Source of the DNA: Oligoflexia bacterium
GTDB lineage: Bacteria; Bdellovibrionota; UBA1018
Assembly: GCA_043732485.1 (NCBI GenBank)
Contig: JAYTHP010000091.1
Span: forward strand, 1 to 14,583
DNA: 14,583 bases
Reading direction: 5' to 3'
The stretch's first letter is position 1. Each line of letters starts with the position of its first letter. A program made the position numbers and the translations under genes. The notes below the pieces were generated by a model. That model saw only the letters and a program-made list of their open reading frames with translations. It had not been told where the DNA came from and ran no database searches. This document shows positions 878 through 14,177 of this stretch, piece after piece.

Positions 878-2845
<1,968 letters not shown>

Positions 2846-5060: not shown

Positions 5061-5354
5061 TCAATCGACGTTGACCAACTCCACCACCACATCACCGAGC
5101 ACTTTGGCTTGGCAACTGAGCCTGGAAGAGGGCTGCGCGCCTGCGGCCGCATCGAGCCGATCTTGCTCCTCCTCATCGATCACAGAGAGCTGATCTGCCC
5201 CGGCCTTGACATAAACATGACAAGTGGTGCACGCACAAAACCCCCCGCAGGCATGCTGCATCGGGACGTCATGATCGAGGGCAACATCCAGCAAGGTATT
5301 GCCTTTTTTGGTTTCAAAACTCACATTCATCGGTAAAAAAGTCACTTTAGGCAT
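5061..5354 (-). CDS. fdx: ISC-system [2Fe-2S] ferredoxin (adrenodoxin type)
   Basis: HACGGFCACTTCH and SRLSCQ motifs; located after hscA. Confidence 0.95.
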   Translation of the reverse strand: MPKVTFLPMNVSFETKKGNTLLDVALDHDVPMQHACGGFCACTTCHVYVKAGADQLSVIDEEEQDRLDAAAGAQPSSRLSCQAKVLGDVVVELVNVD

Positions 5355-5472
5355 GAATCACACACACACACTTTCTCTCACGCTTGTTTTTTTCTCGCTC
5401 TCGTTTTTCGTCCCGGGCTGCAACCAGCGCTGCTTGCTTGCTTGCCTGTCTGCCTACCCTCATCCACGCAAA

Positions 5473-7302
5473 CTACGATGCCGTAGGCTTGAGCTCACCC
5501 TCACGCTTCGTCAACTGGTTCAAGGAACTGGCCAGCAAGCGCCCAGCCAAATCCACGGTTGCTTGATTCAAATCAGAAGTCAGGCTCGCAATCAAGCTGA
5601 TTTCATCCCCGCGCAATGCTTTTTCTAAGGCGTCAATTTGCCCTTGAATCTTGCTGACCTCTTGCGCCTCCAACTGTGCCGAAGCGCTCGGCCATTGCCG
5701 TAAAACCGCTTGCAACAGCGCCTCAGCCTGCTGCCTAGTGCCCAGCCGCTCGCGAAAAGCCTGATCCTCGGCATTGCCCTGCAAGCCTGCAGCCAGGCGA
5801 GCCTCAATTTCCTCAGGTTGCAAACCAAAACTTGGCTTCACCTCAATCGCTTGCTCCTTCCCGGTTAACACATCGAGCGCAGAGACCTGTAAAATGCCAT
5901 CGGCATCCATCACAAAGCTCACTTCTACTCGTGCCTGCCCGGCAGGAAGCGGCGTTAACCCCCCTAACTTAAAACGCCCTAAACTACGATTTTGCTCCAC
6001 CTGCTCACGCTCACCTTGTAAGACGTGAATCTCGACCCCGGTTTGCCGATCGGCAAAGGTAGTAAAGGTCTCACGCGCTGCAGCCGGTATCCGCGTGTTG
6101 CGGGCAATGAGCGGCGCCATCAGCCCGCCATAAGTCTCAATCCCCAGCGTTAAGGGAATGACATCCAGCAGCAGACATTTTTGATTTCCTCCTCCTAAGA
6201 TATCCGCTTGAATGGCGGCGCCTTGCGCCACCACTTCCTCTGGATGCAAGGAGGCATCCGGCACCCGGCCAAAAATCTCAGCCACGAACTCCTGCACGAC
6301 ACTGAGCCGGGTGGGACCTCCCACGAGAATGACTTGCGACAGTTGCTCACGCGTCAGCCCAGCATCAGCCAAAGCCTCAAGACAAGGCTGCCTGGTGCGC
6401 TCCAAAATCGGGGCAATCGCTGTGGCTAAATCTGCCCTGCTCCAGACTTTGCCAAACTGCTGACCTTGCCAGGAAGCCGTAAAGCTCGCTTCAGCGTGAG
6501 TCGCCAACGCAATTTTTACCTGCTCCGCCGCAGCCAGCAGGGTGGCTTGTAACTCCGCCCCCCAGCCCGACCCAGGCGCCCAGATCGCCTCAAGCTCCAC
6601 TTGCATTGCAGCGAGGATGGCTGCATCCAAGTCATCTCCCCCCAAGGCGGTATCCCCGTGGGTGGATAGCACTTCAAAAATACCGTGCGCCAGCTTTAAA
6701 ATCGACAAATCAAAGGTCCCGCCCCCTAAATCATACACCGCAACTAGGCCATCGTGCTGGCCATCGAGCCCATACGCTAGCGCAGCCGCCGTGGGCTCAT
6801 TTAAAATCCGCACCACTTCCCAGCCCGCCCAACGTCCTGCCGTGCGGGTGGCTTGGCGTTGCGCATCGTTAAAATAAGCAGGCACCGTCAAAACTGCCCG
6901 CTTGAGCTCTCGCCCGAGCGCCTTTTCGGCTTCCCGCTTGAGTTCTCGTAGAATCATCGCAGAAATCTCAGTCGGTGAAACCACCTTATCGCCTAAACGA
7001 ATGCCCACTTCTCCCCCCGCCACCGCCTCTTCCACCAGCTGGTGCGAGGCGCTAGCCGGCAAATCCGTGAGCTTTCTGCCTAAAAAACGCTTCACCGAGC
7101 GAATAGTGTGCGAGGCCTGCAAGACCTTTTGTGCTTTAGCAGCGTCCCCCAGCAACCACGCACCGTTCAACCAGCTCACCACCGACGGAAATAACTTGCT
7201 CCCCGATTGCAAACGCAACACCTCGGGGCGCCCCTCCCGCACCCAGGCCACAAGACTATGAGTGGTCCCTAAATCAATCCCAATAATTGGTGCTTGTTCC
7301 AT
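5473..7302 (-). CDS. hscA: Fe-S protein assembly Hsp70 chaperone HscA
   Basis: Hsp70 signatures GIDLGTTHS, TVPAYFNDAQRQAT, ILNEPTAAALAYG, YDLGGGTFDLS and LLDVIPLTLGIET. It has an HGDTALGGDD motif, a GGGAGG RBS and isc operon context. Confidence 0.93.
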   Translation of the reverse strand: MEQAPIIGIDLGTTHSLVAWVREGRPEVLRLQSGSKLFPSVVSWLNGAWLLGDAAKAQKVLQASHTIRSVKRFLGRKLTDLPASASHQLVEEAVAGGEVGIRLGDKVVSPTEISAMILRELKREAEKALGRELKRAVLTVPAYFNDAQRQATRTAGRWAGWEVVRILNEPTAAALAYGLDGQHDGLVAVYDLGGGTFDLSILKLAHGIFEVLSTHGDTALGGDDLDAAILAAMQVELEAIWAPGSGWGAELQATLLAAAEQVKIALATHAEASFTASWQGQQFGKVWSRADLATAIAPILERTRQPCLEALADAGLTREQLSQVILVGGPTRLSVVQEFVAEIFGRVPDASLHPEEVVAQGAAIQADILGGGNQKCLLLDVIPLTLGIETYGGLMAPLIARNTRIPAAARETFTTFADRQTGVEIHVLQGEREQVEQNRSLGRFKLGGLTPLPAGQARVEVSFVMDADGILQVSALDVLTGKEQAIEVKPSFGLQPEEIEARLAAGLQGNAEDQAFRERLGTRQQAEALLQAVLRQWPSASAQLEAQEVSKIQGQIDALEKALRGDEISLIASLTSDLNQATVDLAGRLLASSLNQLTKREGELKPTAS

Positions 7303-7377
7303 CTTGCAAAAGCCTCCCTCTTGTCTCGCACGCCTCTACCTGCTTCAAAAAAATACTCACACCCATTCACTCGACTC

Positions 7378-8280
7378 TCACTTTTGTTCGCCGTTAGCAC
7401 TGACCCCGAGCCGCTTTTGCATTTGCTTGAGCTGCTGCAGCAGCGAGCACACGTAACCTTGCTCGCGCAACTGGGCTTTGATTTCCCCGAGGATCTGCGG
7501 CAGCAGAGCGTGCGCGTGCGACAAAAACTCCTGCGACTCAAGACCCTCGTCTACCCGTGCTTCTAGCCGCTGCATCGCCGCCTCGGCTTGCACCTCGTGG
7601 GCTTGCAGCTGGTCCAGCATCTGCCCAAGCGCTAAGGCTCCTTGCTGAGGATCCTCCAAGACTAAATCCATCAGCGTAAAATACTGCTCTACAAACTGCG
7701 TCGGGATCCCCGCGTCTTTTGTAACGCCAGCCGCCGCCACGCCAGCCTCACCCCCGCGACTGGCTAGGCTCCAGGTTTTTTGTAACTGCTGCACGCGATA
7801 GTCCCGTGCGCGGGTGTGATCTCGCAGCGTGTCATAGGCCACATTGATCCAAGTCATGCGTGCTAAAGACGCCTGCTTGGCTGCGGCACTAGCATTAGAG
7901 AACCGATCCGGATGCAAGGTTCGCGAGAGTGCAAAAAAACGCTTTTCTAGCTCTTGCGTCTCCACTTGAAACTTCGGGGCGAGGCCAAACGCTGTGAAAA
8001 AATCCTCCGCTGAGTCAATCTCTTCCGCGACGGAGCGCTGAGGCGGGTTTGCAGGATCAAAATCCCCGGCCTCACTCCTCCCCAGAACCCCCAGACTCCC
8101 CAGCGGGGCTGGTGCTCCGCATTGCCCACAAAAGTGACGAGCCATCCAAGCCTCACGAACAGAAAGCAGGAAGGGCGTCACCCCCTGCTGATGACAAACG
8201 CCGCACTTAAGCAGAGAAACTGGAACCACAGCCACAAGTCCGTTTCGCATTGGGATTGTTAAAAACAAATCCTGTGCCAT
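7378..8280 (-). CDS. hscB: Fe-S assembly co-chaperone HscB (J-domain) with N-terminal CxxC motifs; start uncertain (8280, 8250 or 8145)
   Basis: DFFTAFGLAPKF..LEKRFFALSRTLHPDRF (J-domain HPD) and INVAYDTLRD, with a helical C-terminus. Located between iscA and hscA. Confidence 0.88.
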   Translation of the reverse strand: MAQDLFLTIPMRNGLVAVVPVSLLKCGVCHQQGVTPFLLSVREAWMARHFCGQCGAPAPLGSLGVLGRSEAGDFDPANPPQRSVAEEIDSAEDFFTAFGLAPKFQVETQELEKRFFALSRTLHPDRFSNASAAAKQASLARMTWINVAYDTLRDHTRARDYRVQQLQKTWSLASRGGEAGVAAAGVTKDAGIPTQFVEQYFTLMDLVLEDPQQGALALGQMLDQLQAHEVQAEAAMQRLEARVDEGLESQEFLSHAHALLPQILGEIKAQLREQGYVCSLLQQLKQMQKRLGVSANGEQK

Positions 8281-8629
8281 TCAAGCCATCGGAAAAATCA
8301 AGTACCGTGCCGGCTAAATACAAATAAGACTTCGAATCAATGACTAAGCGCACGCCTTCTTTTTCAAACACCTTGTCTTGACTGGCCAAAGGTTTTTCCT
8401 CAAAACCCAACTTGTAACTCATCCCCGAGCAACCCCCACCGACCACCATGATGCGCAACAGTGCGGCTGCGGCATGAGCCTCCTGGGTCTGGATCCGCTT
8501 AATCTCAGCCACGGCTTTCGCTGTGACCTCAATCATCACTTGCTCAATCTTGTGCTCAATCTTGTTCTCGACAGCCAGCTGAGTCAACTGCTGCTGCTGA
8601 TCGACTTCCTGATGCAATTTCTCACTCAT
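8207..8629 (-). CDS. iscA: A-type Fe-S carrier IscA (alternative start ATG 8536)
   Basis: GGGCSGMSY and NPNAKRTCGCGSSF motifs. The ATG at 8629 overlaps the iscU stop (ATGA). Confidence 0.93.
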   Translation of the reverse strand: MSEKLHQEVDQQQQLTQLAVENKIEHKIEQVMIEVTAKAVAEIKRIQTQEAHAAAALLRIMVVGGGCSGMSYKLGFEEKPLASQDKVFEKEGVRLVIDSKSYLYLAGTVLDFSDGLNGTGFVFNNPNAKRTCGCGSSFSA

Positions 8630-9021
8630 GTTGACACCGCCGCAGCTTTTTTCAAATAATCGGCAATCGCAGCCTTAATCGCATCTTCTGCTAACACTGA
8701 GCAATGAATTTTAATCGGCGGCAACGACAGCTCCTGGACAATGTCCGTGTTCTTAATCGACAACGCCTGCTGAATCGTCTTGCCCTTGATCCACTCCGTG
8801 GCAAGCGAGGAACTGGCAATCGCACTGCCACAACCAAAGGTCTTGAATTTGGCATCCTCAATCACCCCGGTTTTTGGATCAATTTGGACCTGCAACTTCA
8901 TGACATCACCGCACTCAGGGGCTCCGACTAACCCCGTACCGACACTGAGTGAGTTCTTATCCAAAGTGCCCACATTTTGTGGATTCTCGTAATGTTCAAT
9001 GACTTTTTTTGTATAGCCCAT
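8626..9021 (-). CDS. iscU: Fe-S cluster scaffold IscU
   Basis: HYENPQNVG, GAPECGDVMKLQ, FKTFGCGSAIASS and LPPIKIHCSVLAEDAI, with the three conserved Cys. Confidence 0.97.
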   Translation of the reverse strand: MGYTKKVIEHYENPQNVGTLDKNSLSVGTGLVGAPECGDVMKLQVQIDPKTGVIEDAKFKTFGCGSAIASSSLATEWIKGKTIQQALSIKNTDIVQELSLPPIKIHCSVLAEDAIKAAIADYLKKAAAVST

Positions 9022-9096
9022 GTTTTTTCGCTTCCTTTTTAATGACTTTTTTTACTGACTCTTTTTTTTCTGCTGCTTTTTTGCGCCCGCCCTCGC

Positions 9097-10311
9097 TTAA
9101 TGCCCGCTCCACTGGATCGACTTTAAATCAATGCCTTCTTTGACCATTTCGTATAAGGGTGACAAATCACGCAGTTTCTTCACACTCTCGACCACCTTCT
9201 CTAAAGCAAAATCAATTTCCTCAAGCGTGGTGAAACGACCTAAGCCAAACCGGATGCTGGTGTGTGCTAAGTCTTCTGAGACCCCGATACACTTTAAAAC
9301 ATACGAAGGCTCTAAACTCGAAGAGGTGCAAGCCGAGCCGCTCGAAACTGCTAACTCCTTCATCCCCATCATCAAGGATTCCCCTTCCACGTAGGCAAAG
9401 CTCACGTTTAAGTTATTGGGTAAGCGCTCCACCGGGTGACCATTGAGATACACCTCATCTAATTCCGCTTGAATCCCCGCCCATAAGTGATCCCGCAGCG
9501 CCTTGATGCGCGGCACTTCGACTTTCATCAAGGTGCGCGCCAGCTCTGCTGCCTTACCAAACCCTACGATCCCCGGCACGTTAAGCGTGCCTGAGCGCAT
9601 ACCGCGCTCATGCCCGCCGCCATAAATCAGCGGCTTTAAACGCACGCGAGGATTTCTCCTTCTCACGTATAACAGCGCAATCCCTTTCGGTCCGTAAATC
9701 TTATGGGCCGTAAGCGACAACAGATCGATGCCCATTTTCTCGACATCGAGCTCCATTTTGCCGCCCGCTTGCACCGCATCGCAGTGAAATAAAACGCCTT
9801 TTTCTTTACAAACTGCACCAATTTCTGCAATTGGATTAATCGAACCAATCTCATTATTAGCCGCCATCACCGAGACCAAGAGGGTCTGCGGCGTGATCGC
9901 ATTTCTTACCGACTCTGCGCTCACCCGACCAAATTGATCCACCGGCAAGTAGGTCACCTGAAAACCCTTTTGCTCTAAATACTGACAGGTGTCTAAAATA
10001 GCCTTGTGCTCCACCGGCGAGGTAATGATGTGATTACCCTTCTCCCGGTACATCTCAGCCACCCCCATCAGCGCCAGGTTATTACTCTCGGTTGCGCCAC
10101 TAGTGAAGATGATTTCTTTTTCCTGCGCACCAATCAAGCGCGCCAGCTCTTGCCGGGCTTTTTCAACCGCGCCCTCAGCCGTCCAGCCGTACTCATGATT
10201 GCGGCTCGCTGCGTTACCAAAGACTTCGGTAAAATAAGGCAACATCGCCTGCAAAACAAGCGGATCCATGGGAGTCGTGGAATGGTGATCAAGATAAATA
10301 GGCAACTTCAT
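9097..10311 (-). CDS. iscS: Cysteine desulfurase IscS
   Basis: MKLPIYLD start, PLP-lysine motif AHKIYGPKG, catalytic loop SSGSACTS, C-terminus [16 protein letters not shown], and an AAGGAG RBS. Confidence 0.98.
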
Positions 10312-10420
10312 GGTGAACTCCTTGAGAAAAGTGAAAACTGAAGTCTGAGCGGTGGCAGCTTAGCATACAGTGGAATCACTCTCTCGGTTTTTTGGGGTTA
10401 TTTGGGTTTAACAGCTTTTT

Positions 10421-11035
10421 TCAAATCTTTACTCTCGCCTCGGGCGGGGGCTGAGGACCAACTGCTTGCGCCGTTGCGCGAGTCTCCCACGCGCTCCTCC
10501 CGCCGTCTCCACCTTCAACGCGCTCGGTTAACTCAGTGAGCGGGATTTGTGCTAAAAATTGTACAATTCTCCGGTTTAGCTGCCCCATCACTTGCTTAAG
10601 CTCGCAGTGCGGCTCGTAGGCACAGTCCTTGGCGGTCACCGGACCGTCAGACAACTTCCCAGGACTGCCTGCGGGTACACCCACGAAGGCTGGTGAGAGG
10701 CCGTCGCCTAAAACATTCGAAGGTAAAGCACTCGCCGGGGAGGGCAACAAACAGTTGACCAGCGACTGCGGCCCCTCCATCAGCTCCAAAAAATCGACCA
10801 ACGAGACCGCCGCAAGCTCGCGGTGTAACCGATAGCCGCCTTTGGATCCTTGCGCGGAACGAATTAAGCCGCCGTCTTTGAGGCGCTGTAAGGTCTTAGC
10901 CGTCATCTCAAACGGAAAGCCATAATGCTCTGCAATTTCACGTGCGCTCGTTACCTCAGCAGGCTGATGCTGCTTCGTCGTCATATGCCTCAGCGCAATC
11001 AGGCCATATTCGGTGACGCGGTTCAATTTGATCAT
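10421..11035 (-). CDS. Rrf2-family Fe-S cluster assembly transcription regulator (IscR-like, atypical Cys spacing)
   Basis: Rrf2 winged-helix motifs TEYGLIAL, SAREIAE, LQRLKDGGLIRSAQGSKGGYRL and LELMEGP. Three Cys (95, 138, 144). First gene of the isc operon. Confidence 0.92.
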   Translation of the reverse strand: MIKLNRVTEYGLIALRHMTTKQHQPAEVTSAREIAEHYGFPFEMTAKTLQRLKDGGLIRSAQGSKGGYRLHRELAAVSLVDFLELMEGPQSLVNCLLPSPASALPSNVLGDGLSPAFVGVPAGSPGKLSDGPVTAKDCAYEPHCELKQVMGQLNRRIVQFLAQIPLTELTERVEGGDGGRSAWETRATAQAVGPQPPPEARVKI

Positions 11036-11540: not shown

Positions 11541-11565
11541 ATACTTGACTATTTTACCCGGATAT
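11541..11565. promoter_or_regulatory. IscR type-1-like box overlapping the divergent promoter
   Basis: ATACTTGACTATTTTACCCGGATAT matches 22 of 25 positions of the E. coli type-1 consensus ATASYYGACTRWWWYAGTCRRSTAT (consensus as recalled). Confidence 0.6.
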
Positions 11566-11573
11566 ATTATATT
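11545..11573 (+). promoter_or_regulatory. Sigma70 promoter TTGACT-N17-TATATT, predicted TSS near 11580
   Basis: Both hexamers match consensus at 5 of 6 positions, with an exact 17-bp spacer in an AT-rich patch. Confidence 0.75.
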
Positions 11574-11579
11574 TGTATT

Positions 11580-11850
11580 AGATTAGGCGACGGGGAAACG
11601 GGTGCGGTGCCGGTTTGACGCTCTGCTTGACGCTAGTCGCTTCGAGCTTAGGGGTCATGAGGCCGAGACCCAGGCTCGATCAGTCCTACCGAGCGTGGGA
11701 CGAGGCCTGGGACTTTAAGGCCTACATCGCAGGAAACATTTAGAGGATAGAGGGGCATCCCGTGTGGTGGCTCCACTGTCATAGCCAAAGTGACGGCCGC
11801 GGACGTCTAGTTTTAACCTGTCTTTGGATCAAAGCACAAAGGAGTACTCG
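11580..11850 (+). ncRNA. Putative structured 5' leader or small RNA (family not recognised)
   Basis: Stems AGGCGAC/GTCGCTT (11585-91/11636-42); nested AGGCC/GGCCT, CCCAGGC/GCCTGGG and GTCCTAC/GTGGGAC (11660-11723); CTGTCAT/GTGACGG (11776-96); CTTTG/CAAAG (11822-34). Confidence 0.4.
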
Positions 11851-11852
11851 AT

Positions 11853-14177
11853 ATGCCATGCCCCTTCCATCAGCAGTCAGCTGGAAAAACTATCCGCCCA
11901 CTCACTCCTTCGTGCTCCGTGAGTCAATCCTTGACTCACGAAGCGAGAGCAACCCTGGCTTCTTGGAGCCCTGGAGCGGAATGCATGAACAGCAACACTT
12001 TGGATCTCTCCCCTAGCGTTCTTGCAAGTCCTGCAGCAACTCCTGCAGCCCGCGCTTCTTTAAAGGCGACTTTGAGCCTGGTCGTAGCAGTTGCCTCCGT
12101 AAGCTCGCTTCTCGCACCGTCACTTGCTCAGGCCGCACGCAGCGTCACTGGCAGCGTACCGGAAAATGCCAGTACACGCGATACCGATAGCGAGAGTAAT
12201 CCATCGCTGCACTCTGCCCGATCGTCTTTCGCCCCTAGCCAGGCAGAAGCAAGCGCAGCGCCAGGCGCACATGCCAGTGCAGCAGCCAGTCAAAGCTCCT
12301 CCGCGGCGCAGAAGAAACCTAGCCGATCGCAGCGGTTTGTGAGCTCCGTGAAAAACTTTATTGCCAAGAAGAGCAATCCAACTCAGAATACAGGTTCCGT
12401 AGGCCATGATGCAACTTCTCTTGCAGCAGCACAAAATGCATCACAAAATACTTCAGGAGACCCTCAGGAATCGATCCACGCCTCATCAGGTACTTCCTCA
12501 CGTAGTGACGAAACCTCACCCCTGCCAAATGGACGAACGACCGATGGAACGGTCCAAAGCCGAGCAGCAAAGTTGATTCAGTTTGTCACAAGACCCTTTA
12601 CGCCACTCACAGAAGCAGAACGCTATAAGCAAGAGGAGCTGAAAAAAGCAGGAGGCGCCGCTGATCGGGCCAAACTTGATTTCCAAGGATCGCTTAAAAA
12701 TGGTAGCGCCTTGAGATTTCCCTCCGATTCGGAACATCACCCTGAGAGTAAATTCGAGGTTTATAAAGCCAAAATCACTAATTATTTAAATAGAAAAATC
12801 ACTAACGAAGCCAAGAGAGATCAAGAAATTGATCGCAAGCTCAACAAACGTGAACGTGAAGCCTACGAACAAAACATTGAAATCAACCATAATGGAAAGG
12901 CACAAAACCAGACAAACCCGCAAACCTCTAGACAAGTAGCAGTGAATCGCGGCGGCGGACCGCCTGTGGCCGAAGACCTGCTCACGCTGAGAGTCAAAGC
13001 ACTACAGGAAAAACTAGCAAGCCTTCCTACGGAAAACCCAGCACACCGTGCTGTCCGTCAGACTACGCTCGATCAACTGGCACAAGATGCAAAACAGTTA
13101 GCCACTGAGAAGCGAAACGTTACCGAAGAAGTTTTAGAACAACAAGAGGTGCTGGCAAACCAAGCCAGGGAAAAACAGCAACTACCAGAAAACCATGTCT
13201 TATCAAAAGCTCTCAAGGAGAAATGGGATCATAAAAAAACGATCGACACCAGTATTAATCAAAAAAAGCAGGAGATCACGCAGCTCCGTCAAAGCATCCC
13301 TGATGCTCAAAGAGATAAAAACGGCAAGCTGTGGTCGATTCAGGAATTTGAGGCCGCACTTCAAACTCATGATAGTCGACTGGCAGCCGCCAATGCTGAG
13401 TTAGTTCATCTGCTACGCGCTCATAACGAAGTGGTGACCGATGCAACTGATGCTGGCGCAGTGAAAAAAGCCAACGCCCGCGCTCTCAAGGAGCTGCGCA
13501 AAACTAAAGCTATCGTTAGGACTGCTTTGAAAGAACACACTGCCAAGCTTGCAGTGACCGAAGGAAAAATAAGAACAGCTCAATCGAAGCTCGATGCACT
13601 CCACTCCGCTCTCAACGTTGCGACGGCAGCGAACCAGACGCGAACCGAATCTTCACAGGTACGAGACGCTAAGGTCGCAGCGCAACAAGCCAGTGCTCAA
13701 AAAAGAGCTGATCTTTCTGCACAAATTGCTGCACTCAATGCCCAATTAGAAGAAGAGAACAGAATAGGCGGACGGGCGCAAGCCGAAGCACTTGCAGCTG
13801 CTCGCGTTTTGCAGGAGGCGGATGATCTGAAGCTCAGAACCGCAGAGGAACTTCACACCACCTTTCTCAGGGCCGGAGAGCAACCCTCCTCAGCTTCTGC
13901 TGCTGCAAGGACCCACACCGCCGTCAAGAGTAATCCAGAGCAGCCACCAGGAATGCTACCTTTGTTGCCTCCTCCTCCTCCTCCGCCTGCACCAGCAGCT
14001 GCTGCACCGGCTGTTGCCCCCCCTCCTGCTCCTGCTGCAGGAGTGAATGCCCAAGAAGGAGGGTCGGCTGAAGCGGTCCCACTTTCCGCTCGGGGAACTG
14101 TCGAGAGGGTTTCTGTCGGAACCCAGACTGATCTTTCAGTCCCAAGCCAAATTCCTGCCCCCGCCGTTGGCCCTTAA
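11853..14177 (+). CDS. Hypothetical exported protein: signal-like segment, Ser/Ala-rich disordered region, long coiled coil and Pro-rich C-terminus (alternative start ATG 11985)
   Basis: 774-aa ORF. AAGGAG lies 8 nt before ATG 11853 and GGAG 8 nt before ATG 11985. It has a hydrophobic stretch LSLVVAVASVSSLLAPSLAQA ending in A-Q-A, a heptad-like A/L/E/K/Q-rich central region, and a P7 tract. Confidence 0.85.
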   Translation: MPCPFHQQSAGKTIRPLTPSCSVSQSLTHEARATLASWSPGAECMNSNTLDLSPSVLASPAATPAARASLKATLSLVVAVASVSSLLAPSLAQAARSVTGSVPENASTRDTDSESNPSLHSARSSFAPSQAEASAAPGAHASAAASQSSSAAQKKPSRSQRFVSSVKNFIAKKSNPTQNTGSVGHDATSLAAAQNASQNTSGDPQESIHASSGTSSRSDETSPLPNGRTTDGTVQSRAAKLIQFVTRPFTPLTEAERYKQEELKKAGGAADRAKLDFQGSLKNGSALRFPSDSEHHPESKFEVYKAKITNYLNRKITNEAKRDQEIDRKLNKREREAYEQNIEINHNGKAQNQTNPQTSRQVAVNRGGGPPVAEDLLTLRVKALQEKLASLPTENPAHRAVRQTTLDQLAQDAKQLATEKRNVTEEVLEQQEVLANQAREKQQLPENHVLSKALKEKWDHKKTIDTSINQKKQEITQLRQSIPDAQRDKNGKLWSIQEFEAALQTHDSRLAAANAELVHLLRAHNEVVTDATDAGAVKKANARALKELRKTKAIVRTALKEHTAKLAVTEGKIRTAQSKLDALHSALNVATAANQTRTESSQVRDAKVAAQQASAQKRADLSAQIAALNAQLEEENRIGGRAQAEALAAARVLQEADDLKLRTAEELHTTFLRAGEQPSSASAAARTHTAVKSNPEQPPGMLPLLPPPPPPPAPAAAAPAVAPPPAPAAGVNAQEGGSAEAVPLSARGTVERVSVGTQTDLSVPSQIPAPAVGP
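11918..11940. repeat. Perfect 10-bp inverted repeat CGTGAGTCAA-TCC-TTGACTCACG
   Basis: Read directly. The stem extends to 11913-11945 with one mismatch and one G-U pair. Confidence 0.9.

Follow-up and report, generated by a model that had tools for sequence, protein, structure and literature searches.

A candidate LC8-type octamer in the C-terminal tail of an orphan protein from a probably eukaryote-associated member of the Bdellovibrionota

Hijacking of LC8 through a TQT-type motif is established for viruses. Rabies P, Ebola VP35 and HPIV3 P are foreign to the host and combine a helical domain that oligomerises with a TQT-type anchor in a disordered region; these clients are polymerase cofactors made in the cytosol, and LC8 has been described as a structural clamp for viral phosphoproteins (PMC8615749). 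The EML3 sequence VSRGTQTE, which is the LC8 optimum evolved on phage, lies in disorder near a coiled coil. It binds at 0.08 uM, and Val at position -5 gave a twentyfold higher affinity (PMC3078936). Viral examples only, and no bacterial TQT-type LC8 client, were found in the open-licence literature. The nearest bacterial case in the literature examined is the Chlamydia trachomatis Inc CT850, an exported protein that binds the Tctex-type dynein light chain DYNLT1 and is type III secreted and membrane-inserted (PMC6717882). Expanded sets of ankyrin, LRR and ubiquitin-system domains mark amoeba symbionts such as Amoebophilus asiaticus (PMC8831229). Bdellovibrionota genomes have been treated as likely predators of bacteria (PMC13200544), and no eukaryote-associated member of the Bdellovibrionota group studied here was found in the open-licence literature.

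The protein described here, P0001, shares features with each of the LC8 systems. Its octamer VSVGTQTD is identical to VSRGTQTE at six of eight positions, including Val at -5, with D in place of E, and it lies in predicted disorder near a coiled-coil-like region (PMC3078936). It differs from EML3 in having Val instead of Arg at -3 and in being a bacterial protein with a single C-terminal candidate site about 78 residues past the helix. Like the viral clients it would be foreign to the host and pair a helical domain that may oligomerise with a disordered TQT-type anchor, but it is bacterial, must be exported and is without homology to them (PMC8615749). Like CT850 it is a bacterial protein of the exported type with a putative dynein light chain partner; its motif, however, is of LC8 type and its predicted leader of Sec type (PMC6717882). 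If binding holds, P0001 would work like EML3 or the viral clients.

The window, a stretch of DNA of 14,583 nucleotides, comes from a genome (G000) of 2.58 Mb in 250 contigs that is 89% complete. The gene and its surroundings are as follows.

5061..11035, minus strand: isc operon (iscR, iscS, iscU, iscA, hscB, hscA, ferredoxin), from profile matches and sequence features, context only
11545..11573, plus strand: sigma-70-like promoter match (10/12), divergent from iscR, by sequence match
11839..11844, plus strand: Shine-Dalgarno-like AAGGAG ahead of the ATG at 11853
11853..14177, plus strand: P0001, an orphan gene of 774 amino acids, by ORF calling; no Pfam or NCBIfam family and only a self-match in homologue searches

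The AAGGAG favours the ATG at 11853 over that at 11985 as the start. The promoter match is weak because three such sites were found against 1.7 expected. P0001 is transcribed divergently from the isc operon, in which four genes are taken to be iscU, iscA, hscA and the ferredoxin gene from sequence features. The site upstream of iscR is variable, with different genes there in the 16 relatives read and a positional homologue of P0001 in none of them. The GC3 of P0001, 0.44, lies below the median of 0.61 and is the fourth lowest among 966 long ORFs; such codon usage would suit a gene that is young or was acquired recently. Elsewhere in the window (878-2845, minus strand) is a 655-residue probable lipoprotein with zero Pfam or NCBIfam matches. 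Its stalk is very long and of (GT)n/(GS)n type, and one domain carries an E-x-D-x-x-E motif which we take to be glycoside-hydrolase-16-like.

Homologues of P0001 are absent from the 40 relatives' genomes (0/40), and there are no paralogues in its own genome. Beyond P0001 itself, none was found in the ESM Atlas, in genome and metagenome contigs, in 1.84 billion representatives, or among the 8000 candidates of near lengths scored from a 5.8-billion protein set with residues 230-774 as the query. The other holders are four sequencing runs in which it has a small share, as short pieces of the same strain at >=99%; none of these pieces spans the octamer, and there is no RNA sequencing run among the holders listed. 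Profile searches gave no Pfam hit at E <= 1 and no NCBIfam family, a fold search of the PDB with the model gave nothing at E <= 0.001, and the 38-residue tail matched no PDB sequence at E <= 10.

The protein can be divided into four parts, the last of which contains the octamer.

11853..12134, plus strand: long leader whose end has a basic residue, a stretch of hydrophobic residues (72-87) and, at residue 94, an A-x-A site, by eye and by the author's heuristic
12135..12572, plus strand: Ser/Ala-rich N-terminal region (residues 95-240), mostly low confidence, by model and composition
12741..13874, plus strand: helical, coiled-coil-like body (residues 297-674), by single-sequence model
13875..14174, plus strand: Pro/Ala-rich coil tail (residues 675-774), by model and composition
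14109..14132, plus strand: LC8/DYNLL-type octamer VSVGTQTD (positions -5 to +2, residues 753-760), by sequence

The leader is predicted to be a Sec-type signal peptide or a membrane anchor. The single-sequence AlphaFold2 model covers residues 95-774 and has a pTM of 0.24, with packing not resolved. It places long helices up to about residue 674, the last of them a predicted helix of 141 residues (534-674), followed by coil; the heptad signal in the body is moderate. From residue 700 onward the pLDDT is below 50, although low pLDDT without an alignment is weak evidence of disorder. The composition of the tail, with 23% Pro and 16% order-promoting residues, agrees with this placement of the octamer in a predicted disordered region.

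The first-pass annotation had reported a polyproline run and the octamer in this ORF and had proposed that both mimic ligands of host proteins. Both strings are present at their coordinates in ORF 11853-14177, and the disordered tail is borne out by the predicted coil, the low pLDDT and the proline content. RVSVGTQTD spans 14106-14132, so that the octamer ends 14 residues ahead of the stop. It has the TQT anchor at -1 to +1, D at +2, G at -2, V at -3 and S at -4. These residues agree throughout with the published positional rules, namely D, E or P at +2, a non-aromatic residue at -2, a residue at least as large as Val at -3, a polar residue at -4 and no internal Pro (PMC6607443). The Val at -3 stands where Arg or Lys is preferred (PMC3078936). 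Seven of 19 peptides predicted by PSSM were bound in PMC6607443, which counts against the octamer reading.

Frequencies were assessed on 2009 crudely called ORFs of >=100 amino acids, 459 of them export-like. The octamer is the top-scoring and sole top-tier site in this set and has all five favoured flanking positions. Locally shuffled proteomes contain 0.02 top-tier sites on average (2 of 100 shuffles had one), and the analytic expectation for TQT[DE] with at least three of the four upstream phage-consensus residues is 0.011; these chance figures are optimistic, since both the motif tiers and the C-terminal test were defined once the motif was known. At the genome level the LC8-type octamer is commoner than chance predicts. 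Across the order, 6 of 116 genomes match the DNA pattern V-[S/T-class]-x-[G/A]-TQT-[D/E], and V-S-x-G-TQT-[DE] occurs only in G000. The five matches outside G000 fall in short or apparently non-coding frames (three) or inside secreted-looking enzymes (two). A looser DNA pattern over 41 genomes was discarded because chance matches swamped the signal.

The second-best site in the proteome, RDMATQTP, lies seven residues from the end of P0002, an exported orphan of 629 amino acids encoded on two contigs (C241:1727-2359 and C47:4447-5796). P0002 has the layout of P0001, with a long leader, a helical body and a coil tail, and also an internal hydrophobic stretch. Both sites of tier >=4 thus fall within the last 30 residues of their proteins, where 0.09 were expected over all ORFs, and two such C-terminal sites occurred in none of 100 shuffles. 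The gene for P0002 adjoins one for an exported class-3 lipase (L171:2032-3882, minus strand). A tier-3 site is found in another exported orphan (C141:13713; L169:13713-14879), outside the segment common with its paralogue. These two exported orphans (the second at L169:11055-11801) are 42% identical over 129 residues. The longer one starts with five short repeats and also contains a duplicated block of 29 residues.

It is possible that P0001 is host-directed but that its helical body does the work, the octamer having arisen by chance in a tail that evolves fast and being without a selected role. The octamer was picked post hoc out of a very large scan, and the unusual codon usage hints at a gene that is young or drifting. 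Look-alikes also exist. Of 41 genomes, 32 contain VGTQT[DE]; 30 of the loci were read, and 26 of these proved to be UvrA, as [ST]VGTQTE; the UvrA of some relatives reads SSVGTQTE, with six residues identical to the P0001 octamer. A BCCP of G024 carries a tier-4 site. LC8 look-alikes therefore occur in cytoplasmic enzymes. No effector-like tail site recurs in the loci read from the four effector-rich relatives G021, G024, G005 and G020, where 11 matches are without a locus. The low expectation of 0.01-0.02 per proteome argues against a chance string, as does the fact that the top two sites both terminate exported orphans sharing one layout, and we regard this explanation as unlikely but far from negligible. 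For the candidate LC8 client, the positional rules, the disordered setting, the nearby helical body and the rarity of such a site by chance speak in favour, and we estimate that the putative LC8 binding of P0001 in a host has about as good a chance of being real as not. UvrA, which reads VGTQTE in this order (L140-L168) and VGSQTE in the G000 copy, may serve as a negative control for LC8-motif scans.

The first-pass annotation had named enrichment of the motif among secreted proteins as a check. TQT motifs are not clearly enriched in G000 overall. There are 10 strict TQT[DEP] sites that obey the rules, where shuffling predicts about 5.2, and 42 matches to the wide TQT pattern, where it predicts 35.5. 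The export-like set has 5 sites against 1.6 expected, a noisy difference.

The polyproline run lies in the same tail.

13962..13988, plus strand: LLP7 run on a (CCT)n repeat, with P7 at 13968-13988 (residues 706-712), probably a linker expansion

ActA, RickA and Sca2 are proline-rich exported actin effectors. P0001 resembles them in being of the exported type with a Pro-rich stretch, but it has one P7 run, no convincing WH2 or acidic domain and no homology to them. The suggestion that LLP7 recruits profilin or EVH1, WW or SH3 domains, so that P0001 would modulate actin alone or alongside LC8 binding, draws on two points. The pattern [GL]PPPPP is found in just three of the 2009 ORFs, P0001 among them, which makes a ligand role possible, and LLPPPPPPPA (13962-13991) lies in a coil that is accessible in the model. 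However, the run is a lone one, and its DNA, (CCT)5 CCG CCT, is microsatellite-like. Runs of at least five Pro occur at the same rate in all ORFs (21 of 2009) and in export-like ones (5 of 459). Runs of at least six occur in seven ORFs, some of them housekeeping, including what are presumably MutL-like, MlaE-like and GspK-like proteins. P7 is not above chance. Pattern scans of P0001 gave no convincing WH2, PPxY or acidic-Trp terminus of the Arp2/3 type; two L-[KR]-[KR]-[TA] strings were rejected as WH2 because they lie in helical context with the wrong spacing. The (CCT)n repeat and the like runs in housekeeping proteins leave actin mimicry unsupported, and the engagement of actin regulators that had been read from P7 is not upheld. 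A linker expansion is probably the simpler explanation, and an actin-modulating P0001 appears improbable to us.

The case for a eukaryotic host can be made independently of both motifs. LRR_6 has at least 45 matches in G000, 37 in G021 and at least 150 in G024, and none in the other 38 of the 41 genomes. Ank_2 has 28 matches in G000, second to G005 with 85, with some in 32 of the 41 genomes. F-box-like matches over the cut-off are confined to G000 (two) and G020. Several G000 proteins are ordered as a signal, an F-box-like stretch and LRR. Export-like proteins were hand-picked from 20 regions chosen for their repeats (three of 55 were dropped as housekeeping), and the remaining 52 include 16 with LRR, six with ankyrin and two with IBR. 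Mis-binning of the effector contigs was rejected, as the 22 contigs checked have tetranucleotide z values of -1.3 to 1.6 and nine foreign loci 8 to 38. F-box and RBR/IBR modules function only through eukaryotic ubiquitin machinery. The set of signal-peptide LRR, ankyrin, F-box-like and IBR proteins, with LRR_6 in just 2 of 40 relatives, therefore points to a eukaryotic host, which is likely for this bacterium, and the eukaryotic host or prey proposed in the first-pass annotation gains support from these proteins, which are encoded on contigs of native composition. The two IBR proteins (L175:9036-10628 and L182:4485-6374, both on the plus strand) have signal peptides and Cys-rich stretches flanking the IBR. 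They resemble RING-IBR-RING ubiquitin ligases, and one adds ankyrin repeats.

The IscS of G000 is 80% identical to that of same-family genomes, and the best matches that carry a name are MAGs of Bacteriovoracia; one of these falls among same-order genomes in the IscS tree. These matches and the tree placement assign G000 to the Bdellovibrionota. In the tree its neighbour is G005, a weakly supported placement (0.83), and it is separate from G021 and G024, which is compatible with one origin of host association or with several. G000 resembles Amoebophilus-like symbionts in its expanded ankyrin, LRR and ubiquitin-system domains (PMC8831229). It differs from them in belonging to the Bdellovibrionota, in having no match to the TLC transporter (ATP/ADP translocase), for which relatives have partial and weak matches, or to the T6SS sheath, and in keeping Tad-type genes and four secretins. 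The lack of a TLC match, the Tad-type genes and the secretins count against a strict endosymbiont, and the Tad-type genes suggest that G000 may still prey on bacteria.

The route of export was judged from one marker per system. In this genome, 89% complete, the VipB (T6SS) and VirB4 (T4SS) profiles have zero matches, and FHIPEP has a single match with a score like those of relatives, from which Sec followed by type II secretion or surface display is inferred. With neither T6SS nor T4SS marker matched, P0001 could instead be the bacterium's own periplasmic or membrane-anchored helical stalk, which never enters a eukaryotic cytosol and for which both motifs are irrelevant. Its Sec-type leader might stay uncleaved and act as an anchor, Pro/Ala linkers are frequent in this proteome, and the described Bdellovibrionota are treated as predators of bacteria (PMC13200544). 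On the other hand, relatives would be expected to share an envelope protein, and P0001 is in none of the 40. The F-box-like and IBR proteins bear like leaders, and their domains need eukaryotic ubiquitin machinery. A stalk of this kind seems distinctly unlikely.

The favoured explanation is that P0001 is exported, specific to its lineage and made by a eukaryote-associated member of the Bdellovibrionota that probably infects or attacks protists. P0001 would leave the cell by Sec and then cross the outer membrane via type II secretion or stay bound to the surface. In the host cytosol the C-terminal octamer would dock as an added beta-strand in the groove of a host LC8 dimer. Two P0001 chains may be paired by the helical body, and their tails would then be clamped with avidity by a single LC8 dimer, the P7 run being part of the flexible spacer. 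The clamp may stabilise the P0001 dimer or tether it to LC8-containing assemblies, and transport by dynein is not a necessary consequence. That P0001 is exported, reaches the host cytosol and binds LC8 through its tail is given an even chance.

A wider reading is that a branch of the bacteria-hunting Bdellovibrionota turned to eukaryotes and exports F-box-LRR and RBR-like ubiquitin-ligase mimics plus at least two unrelated helical proteins with convergent C-terminal LC8 docking sites. It is held more tentatively, at somewhat less than an even chance. A confirmed bacterial client would extend mimicry of this hub from viruses to bacteria, and testing its peptide would be an inexpensive way to probe whether an uncultured organism contacts a host. 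The genomic context may outweigh the motif in importance. G000, G021 and G024 by their LRR, G005 by its ankyrin repeats and G020 by its F-box look host-adapted compared with the other relatives, which would make a switch from predator to symbiont testable, and repeated shifts to eukaryotic hosts within this family are possible. The repeat expansions within the family are separate, with LRR_6 in G000, G021 and G024, Ank_2 in G005 and F-box-like matches in G020. Three of these five genomes are 2.0 Mb or smaller.
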